Below, piece after piece: positions 1,940-54,396 of a DNA stretch of 64,000 nucleotides. The DNA is from Escherichia phage SF. The stretch is from the sequence record MH359124; one strand, 5' to 3'. Under the pieces are notes generated by a model, which saw nothing but the letters and a program-made list of their open reading frames with translations, was not told the DNA's origin and did not search any database. Within the stretch, counting starts at the first letter, position 1, and each line of letters starts with the position of its first letter. A program made the translations under genes and the position numbers.

Positions 1940-2925
1940 TGAAAACAATTATGAAAGGCTACTTTGGTAGCCACCTTTATGGAACGTCTACTCCTGAATC
2001 TGACGTCGATTTTAAAGAAATTTATGTCCCTCATGCTCGTGATATCTTGACCGGTAACGTTAAAGAACACATGAGCAAGAACACGAATAACACATCTTCT
2101 AAGAACACAAAAGACGACGTGGACCACGAGTTGTATAGTCTCAAATATTTCTTTAAACTAGCTATGGATGGTGAAACTGTCGCATTAGATATGCTTCACA
2201 CTCCGCAAAGTCTAGTAGTTAAATCTGATTTGCCTGACATGTGGAAGTATATTCAAGACAACAGGTCTCGTTTCTATACCACTAACATGAAATCTTATTT
2301 AGGGTATGTCCGTAAGCAAGCTTCTAAATACGGTGTCAAGGGTTCTCGACTGGCTATTCTTCGTCAAGCCCTTAAACGTTCTAATGAATGGGGTCAATAC
2401 TTTGATAATGGTGCAGTAATTCGTTTATCACATATGAAGAATGTTCTGCCCGTAGGTGAATTTGCTTCGTGGGTTGAAACCGAAAACGAGAAAACAGGTA
2501 AGCAAACGTTCTATAATCTGTTAGACCGTAAATTCCAAGACACATTAACCAATAAAGAGTTCAATGCCATCCTGGTTAAACTGGAAGAGAACTATGGCGA
2601 ACGTGCTCGTAAGGCAGAAGCTAACGAAGGTATTGACTGGAAAGCATTGAGTCATGCATGTCGTGGTGGACTTCAACTATTAGAAATTTATAAAACCGGC
2701 GACCTGGTTTACCCACTTCGGGATGCTCCATTTATTCTAGATGTTAAGCTTGGTAAACATACGTTTAAAACTGTACAAGAATTCCTAGAAGATATCGTTG
2801 ACCAAGTTGAACAAGCATCAGAACAAGCTGCCAAGAACGGTATGCAACAAAAAGTAGATATGAGTTTCTGGGATGATTTCCTTGAGCAAGTCTACTTAGA
2901 AAACCACAATTCGTACTATAAATGA
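1936..2925 (+). CDS. Predicted nucleotidyltransferase-fold protein (GS-x9-DxD motif)
   Basis: N-terminal GSHLYGTSTPESDVD resembles the Pol-beta-type NTase signature; rest unassigned. Confidence 0.45.
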   Translation: MMKTIMKGYFGSHLYGTSTPESDVDFKEIYVPHARDILTGNVKEHMSKNTNNTSSKNTKDDVDHELYSLKYFFKLAMDGETVALDMLHTPQSLVVKSDLPDMWKYIQDNRSRFYTTNMKSYLGYVRKQASKYGVKGSRLAILRQALKRSNEWGQYFDNGAVIRLSHMKNVLPVGEFASWVETENEKTGKQTFYNLLDRKFQDTLTNKEFNAILVKLEENYGERARKAEANEGIDWKALSHACRGGLQLLEIYKTGDLVYPLRDAPFILDVKLGKHTFKTVQEFLEDIVDQVEQASEQAAKNGMQQKVDMSFWDDFLEQVYLENHNSYYK

Positions 2926-2926
2926 T

Positions 2927-2947
2927 AAGGGCCTTCGGGCCCTTTAG
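2927..2947 (+). terminator. UUCG-tetraloop hairpin (GGGCC-TTCG-GGCCC), terminator or RNA stability element
   Basis: Seen in sequence. Confidence 0.5.
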
Positions 2948-3031
2948 GGGGTCAAAATATTTTTAAAAAGTAGTGTACATGCTTTTAGGATATGTTATTA
3001 TAGACATATCAAAACAAGAGGAGAAAACAAA

Positions 3032-3250
3032 ATGAAAACCAAAATGTTAGAAATGATTCGTGAAGCTGGTGATAAAGGTCTTATGGTTAACACTCGTGAT
3101 GCAGACCAACGTCAAGCATTCGGTGAACTGAAATCCAAAGGTCTGGTTAAAGCATCCTTGGGAATCGGTAATGCATTACGAGTCACTTTGACTCCTGCTG
3201 GTAAAGCAGTGTTCTTTCAACCTCTTACCAAAAAATCTCGTCGCAAATAA
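3032..3250 (+). CDS. Hypothetical protein (72 aa)
   Basis: ORF with GAGGAG SD. Confidence 0.5.
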   Translation: MKTKMLEMIREAGDKGLMVNTRDADQRQAFGELKSKGLVKASLGIGNALRVTLTPAGKAVFFQPLTKKSRRK

Positions 3251-3252
3251 TT

Positions 3253-3284
3253 GTTTACTTTTGCTTTAAACGTGTTATTATAGA
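3253..3284 (+). promoter_or_regulatory. T4-type early promoter (GTTTAC -35, TATTATAG -10)
   Basis: Consensus-like motifs; member of repeated ...tattatagacctatc... cassette family. Confidence 0.55.
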
Positions 3285-3320
3285 CCTATCGAAACGAAAT
3301 GAGTAAATTTGGAGAATAAA

Positions 3321-4301
3321 ATGTTCAACGTTCAAATCAAAAAAGGTATCTATCGTAATAACGAAATCTCTGGTTCTTATGTTGCCACAAAGACCTGGTT
3401 CCCGGCAAAGCTTAATCCTGAATGTTCCCACTTAGGTGATGGTAAAATTTTCGTTATGATTGATGGTTCTGAACGTGGAGTATGGGTCTTCAAATCAGAC
3501 ATCGTAATGGAAGGAGCTGAGACATCACCAGTTGCAGTTGTTGAAAGCACTGAAGATATGAAAACTCGTATCAACAAACGCTTTAAAGTAATGAGCATGA
3601 TGACGAATGGCATTATCGATGGCAAAATTCGTTCACTCATTATTTCAGGTGCAGCTGGTATTGGTAAGACGTATTCTCTGGATAAAGCACTTAATAATGC
3701 TAATGATAACGGTTTCATCAAATACAAAAGCATTAATGGTAAAATCTCTGGTATTGGCCTTTACGAACAACTTTGGCTCAACCGTGATGCAGACAGCGTT
3801 CTCTTAATCGACGACGTTGATGTATTCTCGGATATGGACATCTTGAACCTTCTTAAAGCAGCATTAGATACCGGTGATAAACGCAAAGTTTGTTGGAGCA
3901 CTGCGTCATCTTATCTCGATGATAAGGGTATTGATAAAGAATTTGAGTTTGAAGGTACTATCGTTTTCATTACAAACGTTGATATCGATAAAGAGTTAGA
4001 ACGCGGTTCGAAACTTGCTCCGCACCTTCAAGCTTTAGTATCTCGTTCAGTGTATCTCGACCTTGGAGTACACTCTAATGAAGAGATTATGGTTCGAGTT
4101 GAAGATGTAATATTATCTACTGACATGATGCAGAAACGTGGTCTGACGGATGCAGAAACGTATAAAGCATTGTCCTGGATGAAGGCTAACGTATCTCGTC
4201 TTCGCAATGTATCATTACGTACGGCTCTTTATGTAGCAGATTTTATTTCAACTGATAAAGACGGTTGGGAGGAAATCTCTGAAGTTACACTTCTGAAATA
4301 A
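3321..4301 (+). CDS. Predicted P-loop NTPase (Walker A GAAGIGKT, Walker B LLIDDVD)
   Basis: Motifs in translation; ATG at 3321 with GGAG SD. Confidence 0.5.
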   Translation: MFNVQIKKGIYRNNEISGSYVATKTWFPAKLNPECSHLGDGKIFVMIDGSERGVWVFKSDIVMEGAETSPVAVVESTEDMKTRINKRFKVMSMMTNGIIDGKIRSLIISGAAGIGKTYSLDKALNNANDNGFIKYKSINGKISGIGLYEQLWLNRDADSVLLIDDVDVFSDMDILNLLKAALDTGDKRKVCWSTASSYLDDKGIDKEFEFEGTIVFITNVDIDKELERGSKLAPHLQALVSRSVYLDLGVHSNEEIMVRVEDVILSTDMMQKRGLTDAETYKALSWMKANVSRLRNVSLRTALYVADFISTDKDGWEEISEVTLLK

Positions 4302-4711: not shown

Positions 4712-5239
4712 ATGAACGCTAAAGATATTTTCAACCTGGTAAATTATAACGACGGTAAATTTAAATCTGAAGCACAAAGCAAGTTCTTTAATGACGTTGC
4801 TTATGGTAACGAGATTACCGTGGACGGAGGTCAGATTTTCAAATCTCGTTGGAATTGGATTGCTATCATCGATTCAGTTGGAATTGTGGAAGTCTACAAA
4901 AACACTAACAAAAAACGTACATTATTCTGGTCTCGTGAAACTAACGAGCAGTACAAAAAGGATAAAGCATCTCGTTTATCCAAAGTAACCCAGGAAGATA
5001 TCGAGTTTATCAAGAAAGATATCGAGATGTACGAAAATTTAATCGCTGAAGACCAGGCAGTACTCGATAAGTTTGATGAAATTAAAGCTTCTCGTGAAAT
5101 CCCTGACTTCATGAAAGAAACAGTAAACGAACGATACGCTCTCACTTCAGAACGTATTGCAAACTATACAAAACAGAAAGCAGAACGTATTAGTACTCTT
5201 CGGAAATTTGAAGAACGTTTAAAGACGGTTCACGCATAA
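4712..5239 (+). CDS. Hypothetical protein
   Basis: ORF with GGAGG SD. Confidence 0.5.
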   Translation: MNAKDIFNLVNYNDGKFKSEAQSKFFNDVAYGNEITVDGGQIFKSRWNWIAIIDSVGIVEVYKNTNKKRTLFWSRETNEQYKKDKASRLSKVTQEDIEFIKKDIEMYENLIAEDQAVLDKFDEIKASREIPDFMKETVNERYALTSERIANYTKQKAERISTLRKFEERLKTVHA

Positions 5240-15952: not shown

Positions 15953-16013
15953 TATACAAACTCTTGAGAGTATAATTCTCTCATTGGATAATAAAATAAC
16001 CGAGGAAAATAAT

Positions 16014-16346
16014 ATGTCTACTAAAATCAAAAACGTAGTTAATTCTTTCGCTTTCGATAAAGTTGTTGCTCTTCTGGAATCTGGCAATATTGTTACTCCT
16101 CAAGTTCTTGACGCGTGGGAATTCCGTCTTTATGAAATCATGCAAAAACACGACCAGAAAATTGGACGTAATTCTATTCGTGAAATTCTAGTACAATATA
16201 TTCTTTCTGAATTTGACGTTGCCGCATTTGGTGTTGAATCTAAAGCTTATCAGAAACATGAAATCTCTGAAAAGACTATCCGTCGTATGAAAAAACAACG
16301 TAAGAAAAAATTTGTTGACCTGAAAATTGTTAAGGCGGTAAAATGA
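16014..16346 (+). CDS. Hypothetical protein
   Basis: ORF with GAGGAAA SD. Confidence 0.5.
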   Translation: MSTKIKNVVNSFAFDKVVALLESGNIVTPQVLDAWEFRLYEIMQKHDQKIGRNSIREILVQYILSEFDVAAFGVESKAYQKHEISEKTIRRMKKQRKKKFVDLKIVKAVK

Positions 16347-16842: not shown

Positions 16843-16880
16843 GTGCTTTAAGATAGGTCTCTAAATATTATGATATAATA
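16843..16880 (+). promoter_or_regulatory. Promoter region upstream of gene 55 (MotA-box-like TGCTTTA plus TATTAT/TATAAT -10 elements)
   Basis: Motifs read directly. Confidence 0.4.
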
Positions 16881-16908
16881 GACCTATGAATTGAGCTAAG
16901 AGGTACTT

Positions 16909-17466
16909 ATGACTGAACAAAAACCTAAAAATAACTATGTGAATAATAAAGAGCTTCTCGCCGCTATAATCGAGTGGAAAAAGGAGCTCTTAAATAATAA
17001 AGACCCAAACAAAATTATTCGTCAGAATGATACCATCGGTTTAGCAATTATGCTTATCGCCGAAGGCCTATCCAAACGTTTCAACTTTTCAGGATATACC
17101 CAATCTTGGAAGCAGGAGATGATTGCAGATGGGATTGAAGCCTCTATTAAGGGACTTCATAATTTCGACGAAACCAAGTACAATAACCCACATGCATACA
17201 TAACTCGAGCTTGTTTTAATGCTTTTGTCCAACGTATCAAAAAAGAACGTAAGGAAGTTGCAAAGAAATATAGTTACTTCGTTCATAACGTCTACGACAG
17301 TCATGACGATGATATGGTAGCGTTGGTAGATGAAACGTTTATTCAAGACATCTACGATAAAATGACGCATTATGAAGAATCCGCTTATAAAGCTCCTGGG
17401 GCTGAAAAGAAGGAAGTTGTTAGCGATTCGCCTAGTTTGGATTTTTTATATGAGGATGACAATTGA
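16909..17466 (+). CDS. 55: Late-transcription sigma factor gp55
   Basis: 185 aa, near-identical to T4 gp55 as I recall it. Confidence 0.93.
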
Positions 17467-17665
17467 CATCTCTAACTACTTAGAAGAACCTTTTGACGAA
17501 GCAATCCCTTATTTGGTAAAACTGTTGGGTCGTGAATTTAAAATTAATTTTGACATCGACCCTTTGAACCCACATGACGTGTCATTTTCGATAAATGGGA
17601 CTCCGGTTGAGTATGAGTTCTGTATTGAAGAGGATGGACGTTTTTATTTTAATTTAATGAGATAA
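17450..17665 (+). CDS. Hypothetical protein (start uncertain)
   Basis: ORF overlapping 3' end of gene 55. Confidence 0.35.
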
Positions 17666-17666
17666 T

Positions 17667-17990
17667 ATGACTACCGAGATTATTGAAAATAAAGAAGCGG
17701 AAGATGCAGTAGCTAAAATGCTACAAGAAATCCAAAAGAAAAATGAAGCTGAAGCACGTAAAAAATCCGAAAAGATTCTTAAAAAGAATCGTTTTGAACT
17801 AAACCGTCTTTATGCTCATGCTCAAGAAGCAGCAATTCAAAACAACTTCGAAGCTTATGAATATGCTATTAAGAAATCTCGGGATATTCTACGACAACCA
17901 TATAATGACAAGTTAATTAAAATCCAGTGGGTTACTACTCGTCAGGCTATTGAGGACATCATTAATGGCGCTAGTTCAAACAAAGTTTAA
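17667..17990 (+). CDS. Hypothetical protein
   Basis: ORF. Confidence 0.45.
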   Translation: MTTEIIENKEAEDAVAKMLQEIQKKNEAEARKKSEKILKKNRFELNRLYAHAQEAAIQNNFEAYEYAIKKSRDILRQPYNDKLIKIQWVTTRQAIEDIINGASSNKV

Positions 17991-18171
17991 ACGTCTTAAT
18001 CTGAACGCAGGATTCACCCTTAAATTGGGAGGTCCTCTTTGTGTTAAAATTTCCGAAAAGGAATATCACGACGGTTCTATTACAGAAATTTGTCCGCCTA
18101 TTGTAAAGGCAGACCCAAAACAACTCGTGTGGGTTGATTCATTTCAAGTTAAGAAATGGTGGAAACGATGA
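17965..18171 (+). CDS. Hypothetical protein
   Basis: ORF. Confidence 0.4.
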   Translation: MALVQTKFKRLNLNAGFTLKLGGPLCVKISEKEYHDGSITEICPPIVKADPKQLVWVDSFQVKKWWKR

Positions 18172-18210
18172 GAGAAATCGATTTAGGTATTTTCTGAGAG
18201 GTGATTATGC

Positions 18211-18384
18211 ATGACGAACGACCCGACCTCTGAAAATTTCGATAAAATCCGTAAAGGCAAAGCAGAAAGAATGAGACGTTTTAAAGAGTCTTATGATAAA
18301 GCTAAAGCCGAAGGAACTATTACATACAAGCCCATTCGATTTAAAAGTTCAAATGAGCCTCTGTACGGTGTACTATGTGGATAG
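18211..18384 (+). CDS. Hypothetical small protein (57 aa), followed directly by terminator
   Basis: Hand-translated MTNDPTSENFDKIRKGKAERMRRFKE... Confidence 0.35.
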   Translation: MTNDPTSENFDKIRKGKAERMRRFKESYDKAKAEGTITYKPIRFKSSNEPLYGVLCG

Positions 18385-18410
18385 GAACTCTTCGGAGTTC
18401 CTTTTTTTTT
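18383..18410 (+). terminator. UUCG-tetraloop terminator (GGAACTC-TTCG-GAGTTCC followed by T9)
   Basis: Seen in sequence. Confidence 0.7.
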
Positions 18411-18433
18411 GCTTTATAAACGGATGATAGAAT
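18410..18433 (+). promoter_or_regulatory. MotA-dependent middle promoter (TGCTTTA box, 12 nt, TAGAAT) for gene 47
   Basis: Same box/-10 arrangement recurs upstream of 39 and 56. Confidence 0.55.
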
Positions 18434-18456
18434 GAATTAACTAATGAGGAAATAAT

Positions 18457-19476
18457 ATGAAAATTTTGCACTTAGGCGACTTCCATATCGGAGTCAAACA
18501 AGACGACCCATGGGTTCAAGATATTCAACGTGATGGTATTCGTCAAGCAATTGAATACTCTAAGAAACACGGGATTAAAACTTGGATTCAATACGGTGAC
18601 TGGTTTGACGTCCGTAAAGCAATAACACATCGTACAATGGAATTCAATCGTGAAATCGTTGATATGATTTCTAAAGCAGGCATTCACGTTCATGTCACGA
18701 TAGGAAACCATGACATGGCGTTTAAGAATACAATAACACCTAACACTGTTTCCGAATTGTTAACTCAATTTGAAAACTTTACTATTTACGAGCATCCAAC
18801 TACTGTAGATTTTGACGGATGTCTGATTGATATCGTTCCATGGATGTGTGAAGAAAATACAGGTGAAATCTTAGAGCACATCAAGACTTCTTCCGCAGCG
18901 TATTGTGTTGGGCACTGGGAACTGAATGGCTTTTATTTCTATAAAGGAATGAAGTCTCATGGGCTTGAACCTGATTTCTTAAAGACTTATAAACAAGTCT
19001 GGTCCGGCCACTTCCACACAATCTCTGAAGCTGCTAACGTCAAATATATTGGGACACCATGGACCCTTACTGCAGGTGATGAGAACGACCCGCGCGGATT
19101 CTGGGTATTTGACACTGATGTTGAACGTATGGAATTTATTCCTAATGAAACAACATGGCATCGACGAATCACTTATCCGTTTAAAGGCAAAATCAATTAT
19201 TCTGATTATACTAATATAGCCTTACGTGTTATAGTATCAGAAATTGATTCAGAGTTGACTAAGTTTGAATCTGAACTTGAAAAAGTAGTTCACTCTCTTC
19301 GTATGGTTTCTAAAGTTGATAACAGTGTTGAATCTGATGACGACCAGGAAATCGAGATTAAATCACTTCAAGATATCATTAAAGAATATATTGACGCGAT
19401 TCCAGATATCTCAGACGAAGACAGAGAAGTGCTGGTCAAATATTCCAACGAACTTTATATTGAGGCAACACAATGA
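18457..19476 (+). CDS. 47: Recombination endonuclease subunit gp47 (Mre11-like)
   Basis: 339 aa, phosphoesterase motifs GDFH...GDWFD...GNHD. Confidence 0.92.
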   Translation: MKILHLGDFHIGVKQDDPWVQDIQRDGIRQAIEYSKKHGIKTWIQYGDWFDVRKAITHRTMEFNREIVDMISKAGIHVHVTIGNHDMAFKNTITPNTVSELLTQFENFTIYEHPTTVDFDGCLIDIVPWMCEENTGEILEHIKTSSAAYCVGHWELNGFYFYKGMKSHGLEPDFLKTYKQVWSGHFHTISEAANVKYIGTPWTLTAGDENDPRGFWVFDTDVERMEFIPNETTWHRRITYPFKGKINYSDYTNIALRVIVSEIDSELTKFESELEKVVHSLRMVSKVDNSVESDDDQEIEIKSLQDIIKEYIDAIPDISDEDREVLVKYSNELYIEATQ

Positions 19477-40967: not shown

Positions 40968-41990
40968 ATGGCTGAATGGATAGATAATGAATTTGCTTAT
41001 CGTGCGTTTTCTCACCTACCTCGTTTTAGACAAATCAATAATTCAAGCACATTTAAATTAACATTTCGTTGTCCAGTTTGTGGCGACTCCCAGACCGATG
41101 CAATGAAAGCTCGCGGATGGTATTATGGCGGTACTCCTGGTAATGTACATTGTTATAATTGTCAATACCACAATACAATTTCCGGATACTTAAAAGAGTA
41201 TGATGAAGAGCTTTATCGCGAATACCTAATGGAAGTTCGTAAAGAAAAAGCTAGAATGGAACCAAAGATTGAAAAGGTTCCTGAACATAAACCAGAACCG
41301 GAGAAAAAGACTATAAATTCTTTGCCGTCTTGTTCTCGTCTGGACAAGCTGCCTGAAGAGCATCCTATTGTGAAATATGTTAAGTCTCGATGCATTCCTA
41401 AAGAATCATGGAACAGATTATGGTTCACATTAGAATGGCCTAAATTGGTCAACAAGATTCAACCTGGTACGTATAAGAAAGAGATTCCCGAACCACGTTT
41501 AGTGATTCCTATTTTTAATAAAGACGGGAAGGCTGAGTCATTCCAAGGACGTGCACTTCGTAAAGATGCTCCTCAGAAATATATCACTATTAAAGCGTTC
41601 GAGTCTGCAACAAAAATTTATGGTGTTGAACGTGTTAAGGAAGGAGACGTCTGGGTAATGGAAGGCCCTATTGATAGTTTATTCATACCCAATGCAATCG
41701 CTATTACAGGCGGCTCAATAGATTTAGATGTGGTACCATTTAAAGAACGTCGGGTATGGGTAATGGATAATGAACCTAGGCATCCAGATACTATAGCTCG
41801 CATGAAGCGATTAGTTGATGCAGGCGAACGTGTTATGTTCTGGGACCGAGCTCCATGGAGATCAAAGGATGTGAACGATATGGTAATGAAAGAAAATGCA
41901 ACACCACAAGAAATTTTAGAATATATGAAACAGAATATTTCAAGTGGGTTGCATGCTAAAATGAGATTATCTCGTTATTCTAAGATTTAA
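40968..41990 (+). CDS. 61: DNA primase gp61
   Basis: 340 aa, zinc ribbon CPVCGDS...CYNC, TOPRIM-like region. Confidence 0.92.
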   Translation: MAEWIDNEFAYRAFSHLPRFRQINNSSTFKLTFRCPVCGDSQTDAMKARGWYYGGTPGNVHCYNCQYHNTISGYLKEYDEELYREYLMEVRKEKARMEPKIEKVPEHKPEPEKKTINSLPSCSRLDKLPEEHPIVKYVKSRCIPKESWNRLWFTLEWPKLVNKIQPGTYKKEIPEPRLVIPIFNKDGKAESFQGRALRKDAPQKYITIKAFESATKIYGVERVKEGDVWVMEGPIDSLFIPNAIAITGGSIDLDVVPFKERRVWVMDNEPRHPDTIARMKRLVDAGERVMFWDRAPWRSKDVNDMVMKENATPQEILEYMKQNISSGLHAKMRLSRYSKI

Positions 41991-42184
41991 ACAAGCCCTA
42001 TAATAGCAAATGCCAAATCAACTACGGTATCCAATGGAACAGAAGGAACCATAACACCATGGGCAACTAACAATGGCGCAATCCCGAAGTTCCATGAAAT
42101 AATGCCACCTACAACTATTGCAGCGATAGCAGTTTTCTTTTTATTGCCTTTAATAGCGTTGATTAACGATGGAAGTTTAAACAT
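41987..42184 (-). CDS. Hypothetical small membrane protein on the opposite strand
   Basis: 65-aa hydrophobic ORF with AAGGAG SD 5 nt before ATG. Confidence 0.45.
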   Translation of the reverse strand: MFKLPSLINAIKGNKKKTAIAAIVVGGIISWNFGIAPLLVAHGVMVPSVPLDTVVDLAFAIIGLV

Positions 42185-42215
42185 AATATCTCCTTAGTTA
42201 CCTATTATTTATTAC

Positions 42216-42239
42216 GCTTTATAAAATTAATGTTAGAAT
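42216..42239 (+). promoter_or_regulatory. MotA-box middle promoter (GCTTTA, 12 nt, TAGAAT) for gene 56
   Basis: Same arrangement as promoters of 47 and 39. Confidence 0.5.
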
Positions 42240-42273: not shown

Positions 42274-42795
42274 ATGGCGCACTTTAACGAATGTTCACAA
42301 CTTATTTCTGGTGTTGATAAAGCAGAAGAAGCTTATTTTAATGCTCTGATTCATGAAGATAAAGACCCATTGCAGGTAATGCTTGATATGCAGAAATCTT
42401 TACAGGTTCGTCTGGCAAATGACAAGCCTGAACATAACAAACATCCTGATGAATTGGCCACTGCTGGCGATGTTGTTGATTGGCTGCGTAATCAGAAAGA
42501 TTATATCGATGATGAATTCCGTGAACTGCTGACTTCACTTGGTGGTATGAGCAATGGTGAAAAAGCCGCTAGCTCTGTATGGAAGCCGTGGAAAGCACAA
42601 CATGCTGAATATCGAAATCGACGTATCGATGAACTGTCTCCTGAAGACCAGCTTGAAATTAAATTCGAGATGATTGATATCCTCCACTTTGTTCTGAATA
42701 TGTTCCAAGGCCTAGGTCTTTCCGCTGAAGAAATCTTTAAACTTTACTACTTGAAAAACCAACACAACTTTGAACGCCAGGATAATGGTTACTGA
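42274..42795 (+). CDS. 56: dCTP/dCDP pyrophosphatase gp56 (MazG-like)
   Basis: MAHFNEC...matches T4 gp56. Confidence 0.9.
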   Translation: MAHFNECSQLISGVDKAEEAYFNALIHEDKDPLQVMLDMQKSLQVRLANDKPEHNKHPDELATAGDVVDWLRNQKDYIDDEFRELLTSLGGMSNGEKAASSVWKPWKAQHAEYRNRRIDELSPEDQLEIKFEMIDILHFVLNMFQGLGLSAEEIFKLYYLKNQHNFERQDNGY

Positions 42796-42841: not shown

Positions 42842-43078
42842 ATGGGTGGTTATGTAAACATCAAAACCTTTACACGTCCGGCTGGTGAAGGCAAAGAAGT
42901 TAAAGGTATGGAAGTTTCTGTACCGTTTGAGATTTATTCAAACGAACATCGGATTGCAGATTCTCATTACCAAATCTTTCCATCAGAAAAGGCAGCATAT
43001 TCTACTGTAGTTTCTGATGCAGCTGATTGGAAAACTAAGAATGCTGCAATGTTTACCCCTACACCAGTAAGCGGTTAA
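42842..43078 (+). CDS. soc: Small outer capsid protein Soc
   Basis: GYVNIKTF...HYQIFPSEKAAYSTV matches T4 Soc. Confidence 0.9.
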   Translation: MGGYVNIKTFTRPAGEGKEVKGMEVSVPFEIYSNEHRIADSHYQIFPSEKAAYSTVVSDAADWKTKNAAMFTPTPVSG

Positions 43079-43087
43079 ATAATTTAA

Positions 43088-43113
43088 GGAATCCTTCGGG
43101 ATTCCTTTTTTTT
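43088..43113 (+). terminator. UUCG-tetraloop terminator (GGAATCC-TTCG-GGATTCC followed by T8)
   Basis: Seen in sequence. Confidence 0.7.
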
Positions 43114-52578: not shown

Positions 52579-54396
52579 ATGATTAAAAATGAAATTAAGG
52601 TATTGTCAGACGTAGAACATATTAAGAAACGTAGTGGCATGTATATTGGTTCTTCGGCCAAAGAAGCCCATGAGCGTTTTTTGTTTGGTAAATATCAACA
52701 AGTTGAATATGTTCCTGGTCTGGTTAAATTAATCGATGAGATTATTGACAACTCGGTTGATGAAGCTATTCGTACATCATTTAAGTTTGCAAATAAAATT
52801 GATGTGCAAATTAAAAATAATCAAGTTTCGGTGGAAGATAACGGACGTGGTATTCCTCAAGGTTTAGTTACTGACCAAACAGGTGAACAAATTCCTGGGC
52901 CTGTAGCAGCCTGGACTATTCCAAAGGCTGGCGGTAACTTTGGTGATGACTCTGAACGTAAGACCGGTGGTATGAACGGCGTCGGGAGTAGTTTAACTAA
53001 TATCTTCTCTACGTTGTTTACAGGCATCACGTCAGATGGCGAAAATGAAATCACTGTTAACTGTTCAAACGGAATGGAAAACAAATCATGGTCTTCTAAG
53101 AAATCTAAAGGTAAAGGCACTAAAGTAATCTTCACTCCTGATTTCTCTTCATTTGAAGAGCATAATTTATCTCAAATTTATTTAGATATTACTTTAGACC
53201 GACTTCAAACATTGGCAGTCGTTTATCCTGATATCAAGTTCACATTTAATGGTAAAAAGGTTGATGGTAATTTTAAACGATTTGCTAAACAATTTGGCGA
53301 AGATAACATCATTCAAGAAAATGATAAAGTCTCTATAGCATTCACAACATCACCAGATGGCTTCCGTCATTTAACTTATGTGAATAACATCCATACTAAA
53401 AATGGCGGTCATCACGTTGAATGTGTAATGGATGATATCTGCGAACATCTTTTGCCTGGTATTAAAAAGAAATATAAGGGTATTGAAGTCACTAAAGCTC
53501 GTGTTAAAGAATGTCTCACAATGTTGATGTTTATTAGAGACATGAGCAACATGCGTTTTGATTCTCAGACTAAAGAACGTTTAACGTCAACGTATGGCGA
53601 TATTCGTAATCATATCCAATTAGATACTAAGAAAATTGCTCAGGCACTTCTTAAAAACGAAGCCTTGATTATGCCTATTGTTGAAGCAGCATTAGCTCGT
53701 AAATTGGCAGCAGAAAAAGCTGCAGAAACTAAAGCAGCTAAAAAGGCAACTAAAGCTAAGGTTCATAAGCATATTAAAGCTAACCAATGTGGTAAAGATG
53801 CAGATACGACATTGTTTTTAACAGAAGGTGATTCTGCAATTGGTTATCTCATTGATGTTCGTGACCGTGAACTACACGGCGGATTTCCATTACGTGGTAA
53901 GGTGATGAATAGCTGGGGTATGTCATATGCTGATATGATGAAGAACAAAGAGCTCTTTGATATCTGTGCTATCACAGGTCTTATTCTTGGTGAAAAGGCA
54001 GAGAATACGAACTATCGTAATATTGCAATTATGACCGATGCCGATCATGACGGTCTTGGAAGTATTTATCCGGCTTTGCTTGCTTTCTTTAGTAATTGGC
54101 CTGAATTGTTTGAACAAGGACGTATTCGCTTTGTTAAAACGCCTGTAATTATTGCACAAATTGGCAAAACTCAAAAATGGTTTTATACTGTAACTGAGTA
54201 TGAAGAAGCTAAAGATACACTGCCTAAGCATAGTATTCGATACATCAAAGGATTGGGCTCCCTTGAAAAGTCAGAATATCGTGAAATGATTCAGAACCCT
54301 GTGTACGACGTAGTTAAACTTCCTGAAAATTGGAAAGAACTCTTTGAAATGTTGTTGGGTGATGATTCAGAACTTCGTAAAGAATGGATGTCCTAA
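52579..54396 (+). CDS. 39: DNA topoisomerase II large subunit, contiguous gp39+gp60 equivalent (GyrB-like)
   Basis: 605 aa single ORF with ATPase N-terminus and TOPRIM C-terminus. Confidence 0.9.
   Translation: MIKNEIKVLSDVEHIKKRSGMYIGSSAKEAHERFLFGKYQQVEYVPGLVKLIDEIIDNSVDEAIRTSFKFANKIDVQIKNNQVSVEDNGRGIPQGLVTDQTGEQIPGPVAAWTIPKAGGNFGDDSERKTGGMNGVGSSLTNIFSTLFTGITSDGENEITVNCSNGMENKSWSSKKSKGKGTKVIFTPDFSSFEEHNLSQIYLDITLDRLQTLAVVYPDIKFTFNGKKVDGNFKRFAKQFGEDNIIQENDKVSIAFTTSPDGFRHLTYVNNIHTKNGGHHVECVMDDICEHLLPGIKKKYKGIEVTKARVKECLTMLMFIRDMSNMRFDSQTKERLTSTYGDIRNHIQLDTKKIAQALLKNEALIMPIVEAALARKLAAEKAAETKAAKKATKAKVHKHIKANQCGKDADTTLFLTEGDSAIGYLIDVRDRELHGGFPLRGKVMNSWGMSYADMMKNKELFDICAITGLILGEKAENTNYRNIAIMTDADHDGLGSIYPALLAFFSNWPELFEQGRIRFVKTPVIIAQIGKTQKWFYTVTEYEEAKDTLPKHSIRYIKGLGSLEKSEYREMIQNPVYDVVKLPENWKELFEMLLGDDSELRKEWMS

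Follow-up and report, generated by a model that had tools for sequence, protein, structure and literature searches.

The closest described relatives of the small gene analyzed here are RB69ORF029w and RB32ORF030w (RB14ORF31), for which none of the sources gives a function or an expression class. The gene itself is already known: its annotation as RB69ORF029w goes back to the RB69 genome, it is catalogued as PHROG 2024, and it is found in hundreds of genomes. Our literature search found no paper naming ORF029w or ORF030w, nor any that applied ribosome profiling to unannotated ORFs in T4. The RI antiholin, Imm, Sp, Ac, gp52.1, and the class II holins and pinholins resemble its product in size class, in their location in the membrane, and plausibly in acting at the cell envelope, but no sequence or fold similarity between them and the small protein was detectable. 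What we add to the known gene is incremental and comprises the case for late expression, the range of phages that carry the family, an unannotated copy in T4, and a structured 3' end of the adjoining primase gene.

The window, i.e., the whole stretch of 64,000 nucleotides of Escherichia phage SF (MH359124), was identified as belonging to Mosigvirus, an RB69/HX01-like T-even phage. The 2.2 kb around the small ORF share 98% identity with Escherichia phages NHEP36, AV112, and HX01, and 153 phage records, nearly all of them Mosigvirus (RB69 group), align to at least 80% of this locus. The ORF encodes a protein of 65 aa, MFKLPSLINAIKGNKKKTAIAAIVVGGIISWNFGIAPLLVAHGVMVPSVPLDTVVDLAFAIIGLV, and is an orthologue of RB69ORF029w/RB32ORF030w with 95% identity to RB69ORF029w; gene, position, and orientation are the same, and there is no material difference. 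It lies between gene 61 and gene 56, which are separated by only 283 nt (Table 1). The ORF and gene 61 are convergent with zero intergenic space, and their stop codons overlap by 4 nt, an arrangement that is likewise annotated in T6, RB14, RB69, ESCO47, CkP1, Entb_45, and STML-198. On the other side, the predicted middle promoter of gene 56 consists of a MotA-box-like ttaCGCTTTA (42212-42221) and, 12 nt further on, TAGAAT (42234-42239). Its RB69 equivalent is the promoter 'Pm:16038' (15998..16038, -, score 21.6), which is listed in the supplementary data of Nolan et al. 2006 (PMC1524935).

Table 1. Features of the locus between gene 61 and soc (positions in the window).
Feature	Position	Strand	Basis or detail
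Gene 61 (DNA primase), convergent neighbour	40968..41990	+	PHROG 47, E 1.1e-101; annotations of relatives
U-rich tract, UUUCUUUCA	41887..41895	-	Directly after the hairpin; complementary to the MKE codons in gene 61; sequence and fold
Hairpin, candidate 3' end/terminator of the late transcript, arms AUGCAACCCAC / GUGGUGUUGCAU	41896..41954	-	Folds
Stop overlap TTAA	41987..41990		Gene 61 TAA 41988-41990 (+); small-ORF TAA 41989-41987 (-)
CDS of the small membrane protein, 65 aa, stop included	41987..42184	-	ATG start; ORF listing; PHROG 2024
Shine-Dalgarno sequence AAGGAG	42190..42195	-	5-nt spacer to the ATG at 42184; read from the sequence
Predicted gp55-type late promoter AATAAATA (-13 to -6)	42206..42213	-	Motif depletion and conservation
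Predicted MotA-type middle promoter of gene 56, divergent	42212..42239	+	Sequence
Gene 56 (dCTPase/dUTPase), divergent neighbour	42274..42795	+	PHROG 173, E 1.6e-45; annotations of relatives
soc	42842-43078	+	

The original prediction had described the ORF as the only gene on the opposite strand, and the comparison with RB69 agrees with this. In the curated RB69 record, the stretch equivalent to the window (1-60 kb plus 160.5-167.5 kb, about 130 features) has RB69ORF029w, there on the + strand, as the only CDS of that orientation. Other - strand ORFs of at least 60 aa do occur in the window, and each is overlapped by a longer + strand ORF. The absence of a dam gene from the interval between genes 61 and 56 was confirmed as well, given the small size of this gap and the tblastn search with T4 Dam, which found no homologue in the whole window (best E 0.85). 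No paralogue of the small ORF was found elsewhere in the window.

The predicted position of the ORF, which starts with ATG, and the hydrophobic character of its product (GRAVY +1.20) were reproduced, and so was the strong Shine-Dalgarno (SD) sequence in front of it. On the - strand, the sequence 5' of the ORF reads ...GCGTAATAAATAATAGGTAACTAAGGAGATATTATG. An AGGAG(G) SD and the ATG are kept at each of the 12 promoter-proximal loci that we compared; a weaker SD, GGAG only, precedes the second, internal gene of a tandem pair in ESCO47. The protein matched the profile of PHROG 2024 (unknown function) end to end (hmmscan, residues 1-65 against 1-65 of 65, E 2.6e-27). Using the Nei-Gojobori method on pairs of 97% to 53% nucleotide identity, we obtained dN/dS values of 0.05-0.45, most of them between 0.1 and 0.25. 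Between the window and ESCO47, 16, 3, and 32 differences fell on codon positions 1, 2, and 3, respectively, so that position 2 is far below position 3. Synonymous sites are saturated, and the amino-acid motifs are retained at 22-55% identity. The identical 65-aa protein was present in 156 public contigs, with the label "hypothetical protein" every time, and the window-type protein gave tblastn matches in 691 phage records. The small ORF is clearly a genuine, conserved protein-coding gene under purifying selection.

These results bear on an alternative in which the ORF is untranslated and a conserved late antisense RNA or promoter interferes with gene 61 or gene 56 late in infection. Such a role would suit the geometry of the locus, as the overlapping stops force any transcript of the small ORF to be antisense to gene 61, and the predicted late promoter abuts the middle promoter of gene 56, the upstream edge of which overlaps it. 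In T4, several sites are also known at which the two strands are both transcribed, though not at the same time (PMC2988020). However, the low dN/dS, together with motifs that persist while synonymous sites are saturated, reflects purifying selection at the protein level, and the conserved SD and ATG point in the same direction. This pattern of selection excludes a purely non-coding antisense role, and we find the alternative barely credible. An antisense effect on gene 61 that is additional to coding is possible.

According to the original prediction, T4 has no recognizable counterpart of the gene. This proved to be wrong. In the T4 reference sequence NC_000866.4, 309 bp between dam (16846-17625) and gene 61 (17935-18963) are without annotation, and a homologue of 66 aa (17738..17938, +; MVQKLMALVNAIKGNKKRIAF...GLI) with 55% identity to the window protein was found there. 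It is preceded by the SD AAGGAGG and, 28 nt upstream, by GATAAATA. Like the window gene, the T4 ORF has the TTAA stop overlap with gene 61 and a strong SD. In contrast to the window, dam is inserted in T4 between the promoter of the small ORF and gene 56, and the T4 protein is longer by one residue and carries another Met at position 6. In the RB14 record, this gene appears as RB32ORF030w, "similar to RB69ORF029w". No other virulent phage has been studied as well as T4, and still the PHROG 2024 gene is absent from its reference annotation.

Besides the window type, a profile search revealed two further, diverged types of the protein; tblastn matches to diverged types were obtained in 183 plus 138 phage records. 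The B type begins with MGTVFYQIWKL... and is encoded in ESCO47 by a paralogue in tandem, located immediately 5' of the window-type copy. The distant type (MSE...KGKLILVG...WNY...) is found in phages of Klebsiella, Citrobacter, Salmonella, and Enterobacter. When 1.84 billion representative proteins were scanned exhaustively with HMMER, just 14 clusters were returned, all from the same small family, and this search gave neither bacterial nor distant relatives from which a function might be borrowed. Therefore, the family is confined to T-even phages of enterobacteria.

We inspected the loci of the window, RB69, T4, T6, RB14, ESCO47, CJ20, YenP8, CkP1, PKO111, Entb_45, PM2, and STML-198. At every one of them, the gene meets gene 61 tail-to-tail and is on the other strand than the early genes; in most cases, the two stop codons overlap (TTAA). 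The genera covered directly in this way were Tequatro-, Mosig-, Gapriver-, Karam-, Jiaoda-, Kanagawa-, Mosuguk-, and Gelderlandvirus, in addition to a Yersinia phage. Further phages with tblastn matches are ones that we take to be Moonvirus, Dhakavirus, and Slopekvirus, so that the family spans at least 11 genera (eight read directly, and three through tblastn matches in phages taken to belong to them). A gene conserved to this extent is also the only one on its strand in about 60 kb. The flank away from gene 61 varies: T4 has dam, CkP1 and Entb_45 have an ORF of about 100 aa, and PKO111 has a 1.5-kb ORF and a methyltransferase gene. The labels 'Holin' and 'putative head morphogenesis protein', each attached to one homologue, are unsupported automatic names.

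Upstream of the SD, the original prediction had pointed to a late-promoter-like AATAAATA. The element is present as described, and its reading as a late promoter is well supported by conservation across genera, by depletion of the motif in the window, and by published data on A at -13. The element is located 21 nt before the ATG, which places the predicted transcription start near 42200/42199 and gives a leader of about 15 nt. In the 64-kb window, TATAAATA is present in two copies only, before gene 49 and before soc. The core ATAAATA occurs four times when both strands are counted, compared with 28.6 +/- 4.7 copies expected from shuffled sequences. This sevenfold depletion indicates that the motif is under strong avoidance in the window. 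Three of the four sites are found before gene 49, soc, and the small ORF, and the fourth is antisense inside gene 39. The small ORF thus resembles soc and 49, two T4 late genes within the early region, which likewise carry TATAAATA-type motifs where the motif is otherwise depleted. It differs from them in strand and sequence, as soc and 49 are on the early-gene strand and have the perfect consensus, whereas the small ORF is on the opposite strand and has the A(-13) variant.

When the loci were compared, ATAAATA was found 20-29 nt before the ATG at 11 of 13 loci, representing nine genera. The base at -13 was A, G, C, or T, the last of these in Entb_45, where it gives a perfect TATAAATA. CkP1 and STML-198 have ATTAAATA in place of ATAAATA. 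In ESCO47, the window-type copy comes second in the tandem pair and for this reason has no motif. In T4, 32 of 50 late-promoter sites are perfect and nine have A(-13), the commonest natural variant (Geiduschek and Kassavetis, PMC2988020), and in phages of the RB69 kind, i.e., RB69 and relatives, position -13 is commonly A or T (Nolan et al. 2006, PMC1524935). Judged from these sequence comparisons, the small ORF is most probably transcribed late from AATAAATA. A late assignment of the PHROG 2024 gene seems to be without precedent in the literature that we found.

We also considered early, middle, or constitutive expression from another promoter, for example of a superinfection-exclusion or anti-defence protein like Imm or Sp. 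The ORF has the surroundings of the early region, with imm, sp, and numerous small early genes. Moreover, Nolan et al. 2006 (PMC1524935) reported that novel ORFs seem to be expressed together with early genes, and none of the 31 late-promoter sites that they gave for RB69, soc and 49 included, is at RB69ORF029w. However, all early and middle T4 transcripts are opposite in polarity to the small ORF, while late transcripts, unlike these, are of either polarity (PMC2988020). No sigma-70-like site was found upstream of the small ORF on the - strand, and ATAAATA is conserved there at the correct spacing. We therefore regard expression from another promoter as quite improbable; Imm and Sp are early genes, unlike the small ORF with its probable late expression.

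The gene product had been predicted to be a small membrane protein, and the different methods that we used agree on this. In the 19-residue Kyte-Doolittle (KD) profile, residues 22-41 peak at 1.93 and residues 44-62 at 1.80, and AlphaFold2 (AF2), run with the family alignment, gave a model with a pLDDT of 83 and helices at residues 3-11, 15-41, and 51-62. For RB69ORF029w, a transmembrane (TM) segment was predicted at residues 21-41 (Nolan et al. 2006, PMC1524935). Residues 18-41, approximately, are predicted to form one long TM helix. The N-terminal 17 residues include five Lys (+5), no basic residue follows after position 17, and the positive-inside rule predicts a cytoplasmic N-terminus. The final 24 residues have a net charge of -2, and the C-terminus reads ...DLAFAIIGLV. 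Within this part, VMVPSVPLDTVVDLAFAIIGLV is hydrophobic enough (KD 1.80) for a second membrane segment. It contains two Asp and is for this reason possibly interfacial; it may lie at the periplasmic interface.

Across the aligned types, W31, N32, P37, and P47 are invariant, and G43 and the acidic residue at position 52 are nearly so. The resulting pattern, W-N-x4-P in the TM helix followed by G...(L)P...D/E, is also present in distant members. Classically, a conserved Asn within a TM helix drives the association of helices, and we read N32 as a likely sign of a specific contact. The small protein had no match in Pfam, NCBIfam, or PADLOC, and none in a sequence-profile search of the PDB (best E 1.8). 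Foldseek gave 0 matches against the PDB and only members of the family against BFVD. Accordingly, none of these searches, whether of Pfam, NCBIfam, PADLOC, or PDB sequences and folds, provided homology support for a function.

Small size, probable late expression, and two hydrophobic segments would also be compatible with a holin, a pinholin, or an antiholin-type lysis protein. In addition, the T4 version starts with MVQKLM, in which Lys is flanked by two Met codons, and one homologue, A0A482MZV5, bears the UniProt name 'Holin'. Yet this second Met is missing in the window, in Gaprivervirus, and in other types, and the single 'Holin' label has to be set against hundreds of 'hypothetical protein' labels. 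Of the two-TM architecture of class II holins, the protein shows the two KD peaks, but its second segment contains the two Asp, and the AF2 helix 51-62 is only 12 residues long. There is no adjoining endolysin or spanin gene; the neighbours encode the primase and the dCTPase. A holin proper is unlikely because the charged C-terminal tail of holins is absent (the protein ends in ...IIGLV and has its last basic residue no later than position 17), because no holin family was matched in Pfam at E up to 1 or in NCBIfam or PHROG, and because T-even phages already possess the holin T, the antiholin RI, and RIII. For lysis proteins of the holin, pinholin, or antiholin type taken together, we consider the assignment improbable.

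A small, hydrophobic protein with a basic N-terminus could also be a type I toxin-like peptide, the translation of which is held off by the antisense gene 61/56 transcript until late in infection. Indeed, an early/middle read-through transcript from 61 to 56 fully covers the ORF, and one family member matched the Pfam family Ldr_toxin with an E of 0.1. This match is not significant, though, and was obtained with only 1 of 18 members, and the conserved polar and proline motif points to a specific fold or contact and not to generic membrane damage. The chance that the protein is such a toxin appears to be very small.

Considering all this, we think it probable that the locus carries a conserved T-even gene for a 65-residue inner-membrane micro-protein, expressed most probably late. 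After the onset of replication, RNA polymerase with gp55, gp33, and gp45 would start at the variant promoter AATAAATA, about 15 nt before the ATG; the sequence shows a short leader with a strong AAGGAG SD, which drives translation. The Lys-rich N-terminus (+5) is predicted to stay in the cytoplasm, the helix of residues 18-41 or so to cross the membrane, and the C-terminal 24 residues to be at or in the periplasmic leaflet. W31-N32-x4-P37, together with G43, P47, and D/E52, could then make a specific contact, either by self-association or with another membrane protein. Through this contact, the protein would be more than a passive anchor, namely a small factor that modulates the cell envelope late in infection. 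The guess that we prefer, and it is a tentative one, is that it takes part in membrane events of the late phase, such as the timing of lysis or the integrity of the envelope. As a probable late membrane micro-protein gene, it offers a cheap and well-defined target for knockout or tagging.

Since the stop codons overlap, the late RNA of the small gene must run antisense into gene 61, to roughly the last 100 nt of which it would be complementary. The convergent layout with the primase gene is thereby a compact test case for transcript termination without intergenic space. Downstream of the ORF, RNAalifold found no common structure, as the stems are in different registers in the different lineages. 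For this reason, we used folds of the individual sequences together with controls in which synonymous codons were resampled and the primase protein sequence was kept. A simple terminator scan of the - strand, covering 6 kb downstream, found no canonical terminator, because its loop limit of 3-8 excludes hairpins with a large loop.

The individual folds gave a hairpin within the last 34 codons of gene 61. Its stem has 11 bp and one bulge, with 41954-41944 paired to 41907-41896, and it is followed by the U-rich tract. Equivalent hairpins, shifted in register, were found in T4, RB14, CkP1, Entb_45, PM2, and STML-198. In seven phages with abutting genes, the last 34 codons of gene 61 had an excess of structure compared with the controls (mean z -2.89), whereas all eight other 34-codon windows of the gene gave mean z values from -0.64 to +0.34. 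In the Mosigvirus lineage, this excess is only slight (z -0.4 to -1.4) and not significant against the synonymous controls. The hairpin energies are similar on both strands, so they do not tell the strand of action apart.

The structured end of gene 61 fits a terminator or 3' stabilizer of the small gene, for which the fold makes it a candidate. The late RNA would then probably be ended or stabilized by the hairpin and the U-tract 35-100 nt downstream, within the primase CDS. We consider unlikely the more far-reaching idea that the gene is a so far unrecognized late component of T-even envelope control, for instance by acting together with the holin/antiholin system or with a host inner-membrane complex, overlooked in T4 for want of an annotation in its reference genome, with an embedded terminator and a late antisense brake on gene 61. 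In PKO111 and YenP8, the end of gene 61 showed no excess of structure. PKO111 (z +0.7) has its own GC hairpin in an intergenic gap of 18 nt, YenP8 (z +1.6) has a homing endonuclease between the two genes, and CJ20 carries a textbook intergenic terminator.

The small ORF has a homologue of 66 aa in T4 (NC_000866.4 17738-17938), which is unannotated in the reference genome. Its site is the 309-bp annotation-free gap from dam to gene 61, and GATAAATA and AAGGAGG are found upstream of it. In Escherichia phage vB_EcoM_ESCO47 (OM386662), the window-type copy is immediately preceded by a diverged B-type tandem paralogue (22% identical), and the two genes overlap at the start of the window-type copy; ATAAATA is present only ahead of the first gene of this pair. 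PM2 and the SEA1/CGG4-1 phages have the B type as their sole copy. The stop-codon overlap, conserved otherwise, is broken in Yersinia phage vB_YenM_P8, where the insertion of a homing endonuclease gene separates the small ORF from gene 61 precisely at their junction.

When compared with synonymous-codon controls, the hairpin formed by the last ~34 codons of the primase gene 61 was more stable (mean z -2.9), while the remainder of the gene showed no excess stability against such controls. Only phages with the small ORF directly adjoining gene 61 showed this excess.

The window, as a whole an early region, strongly avoids the late-promoter core: ATAAATA was observed four times in the 64 kb (28.6 ± 4.7 expected) and TATAAATA twice (6.7 expected), one of these perfect copies being located upstream of gene 49 (10683) and the other upstream of soc (42803). 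Besides the small-ORF copy, a single ATAAATA is found on the minus strand, antisense within the topoisomerase gene 39, and neither an SD nor a plausible ORF was detected downstream of it. This copy is possibly a promoter for late antisense transcription, or else an accident of coding constraint (SIYP codons). The probable late promoter of the small ORF stands back-to-back with the predicted middle promoter of gene 56 on the opposite strand, with a 2-nt overlap; the latter corresponds to the RB69 promoter 'Pm:16038' (Nolan et al. 2006).

Coordinates of features in the window and in comparison loci
Feature	Location	Strand	Remarks
Small-ORF homologue	L004 (T4) 3239-3439	+	
B-type paralogue	L009 (ESCO47) 2305-2508	+	
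Hairpin, 3' end of gene 61	window 41887-41954	-	fold
Equivalent hairpin	L004 3475-3527		equivalents also in further loci L011, L013, L014, L015
Homing endonuclease gene	L007 (vB_YenM_P8) 2786-3553		
ATAAATA (GATAAATA)	window 54063-54069	-	
Predicted gene 56 middle promoter	window 42212-42239	+	MotA-box-like ttaCGCTTTA, then TAGAAT
Post-soc hairpin	window 43086-43107	both	perfect 9 bp, AAGGAATCC-TTCG-GGATTCCTT
Additional HX01 calls	L001 (HX01) 3807-3884, 5029-5106, 5113-5226	minus	RefSeq annotation

The hairpin just 3' of soc carries a T-run on the plus strand, and the records of NBG1 and its relatives annotate a terminator there. The RefSeq record of HX01 additionally lists minus-strand 'hypothetical proteins' of 25-37 aa near genes 56 and soc. 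These are probably over-calls, as they are absent from the annotations of RB69, NBG1, and S143_2.
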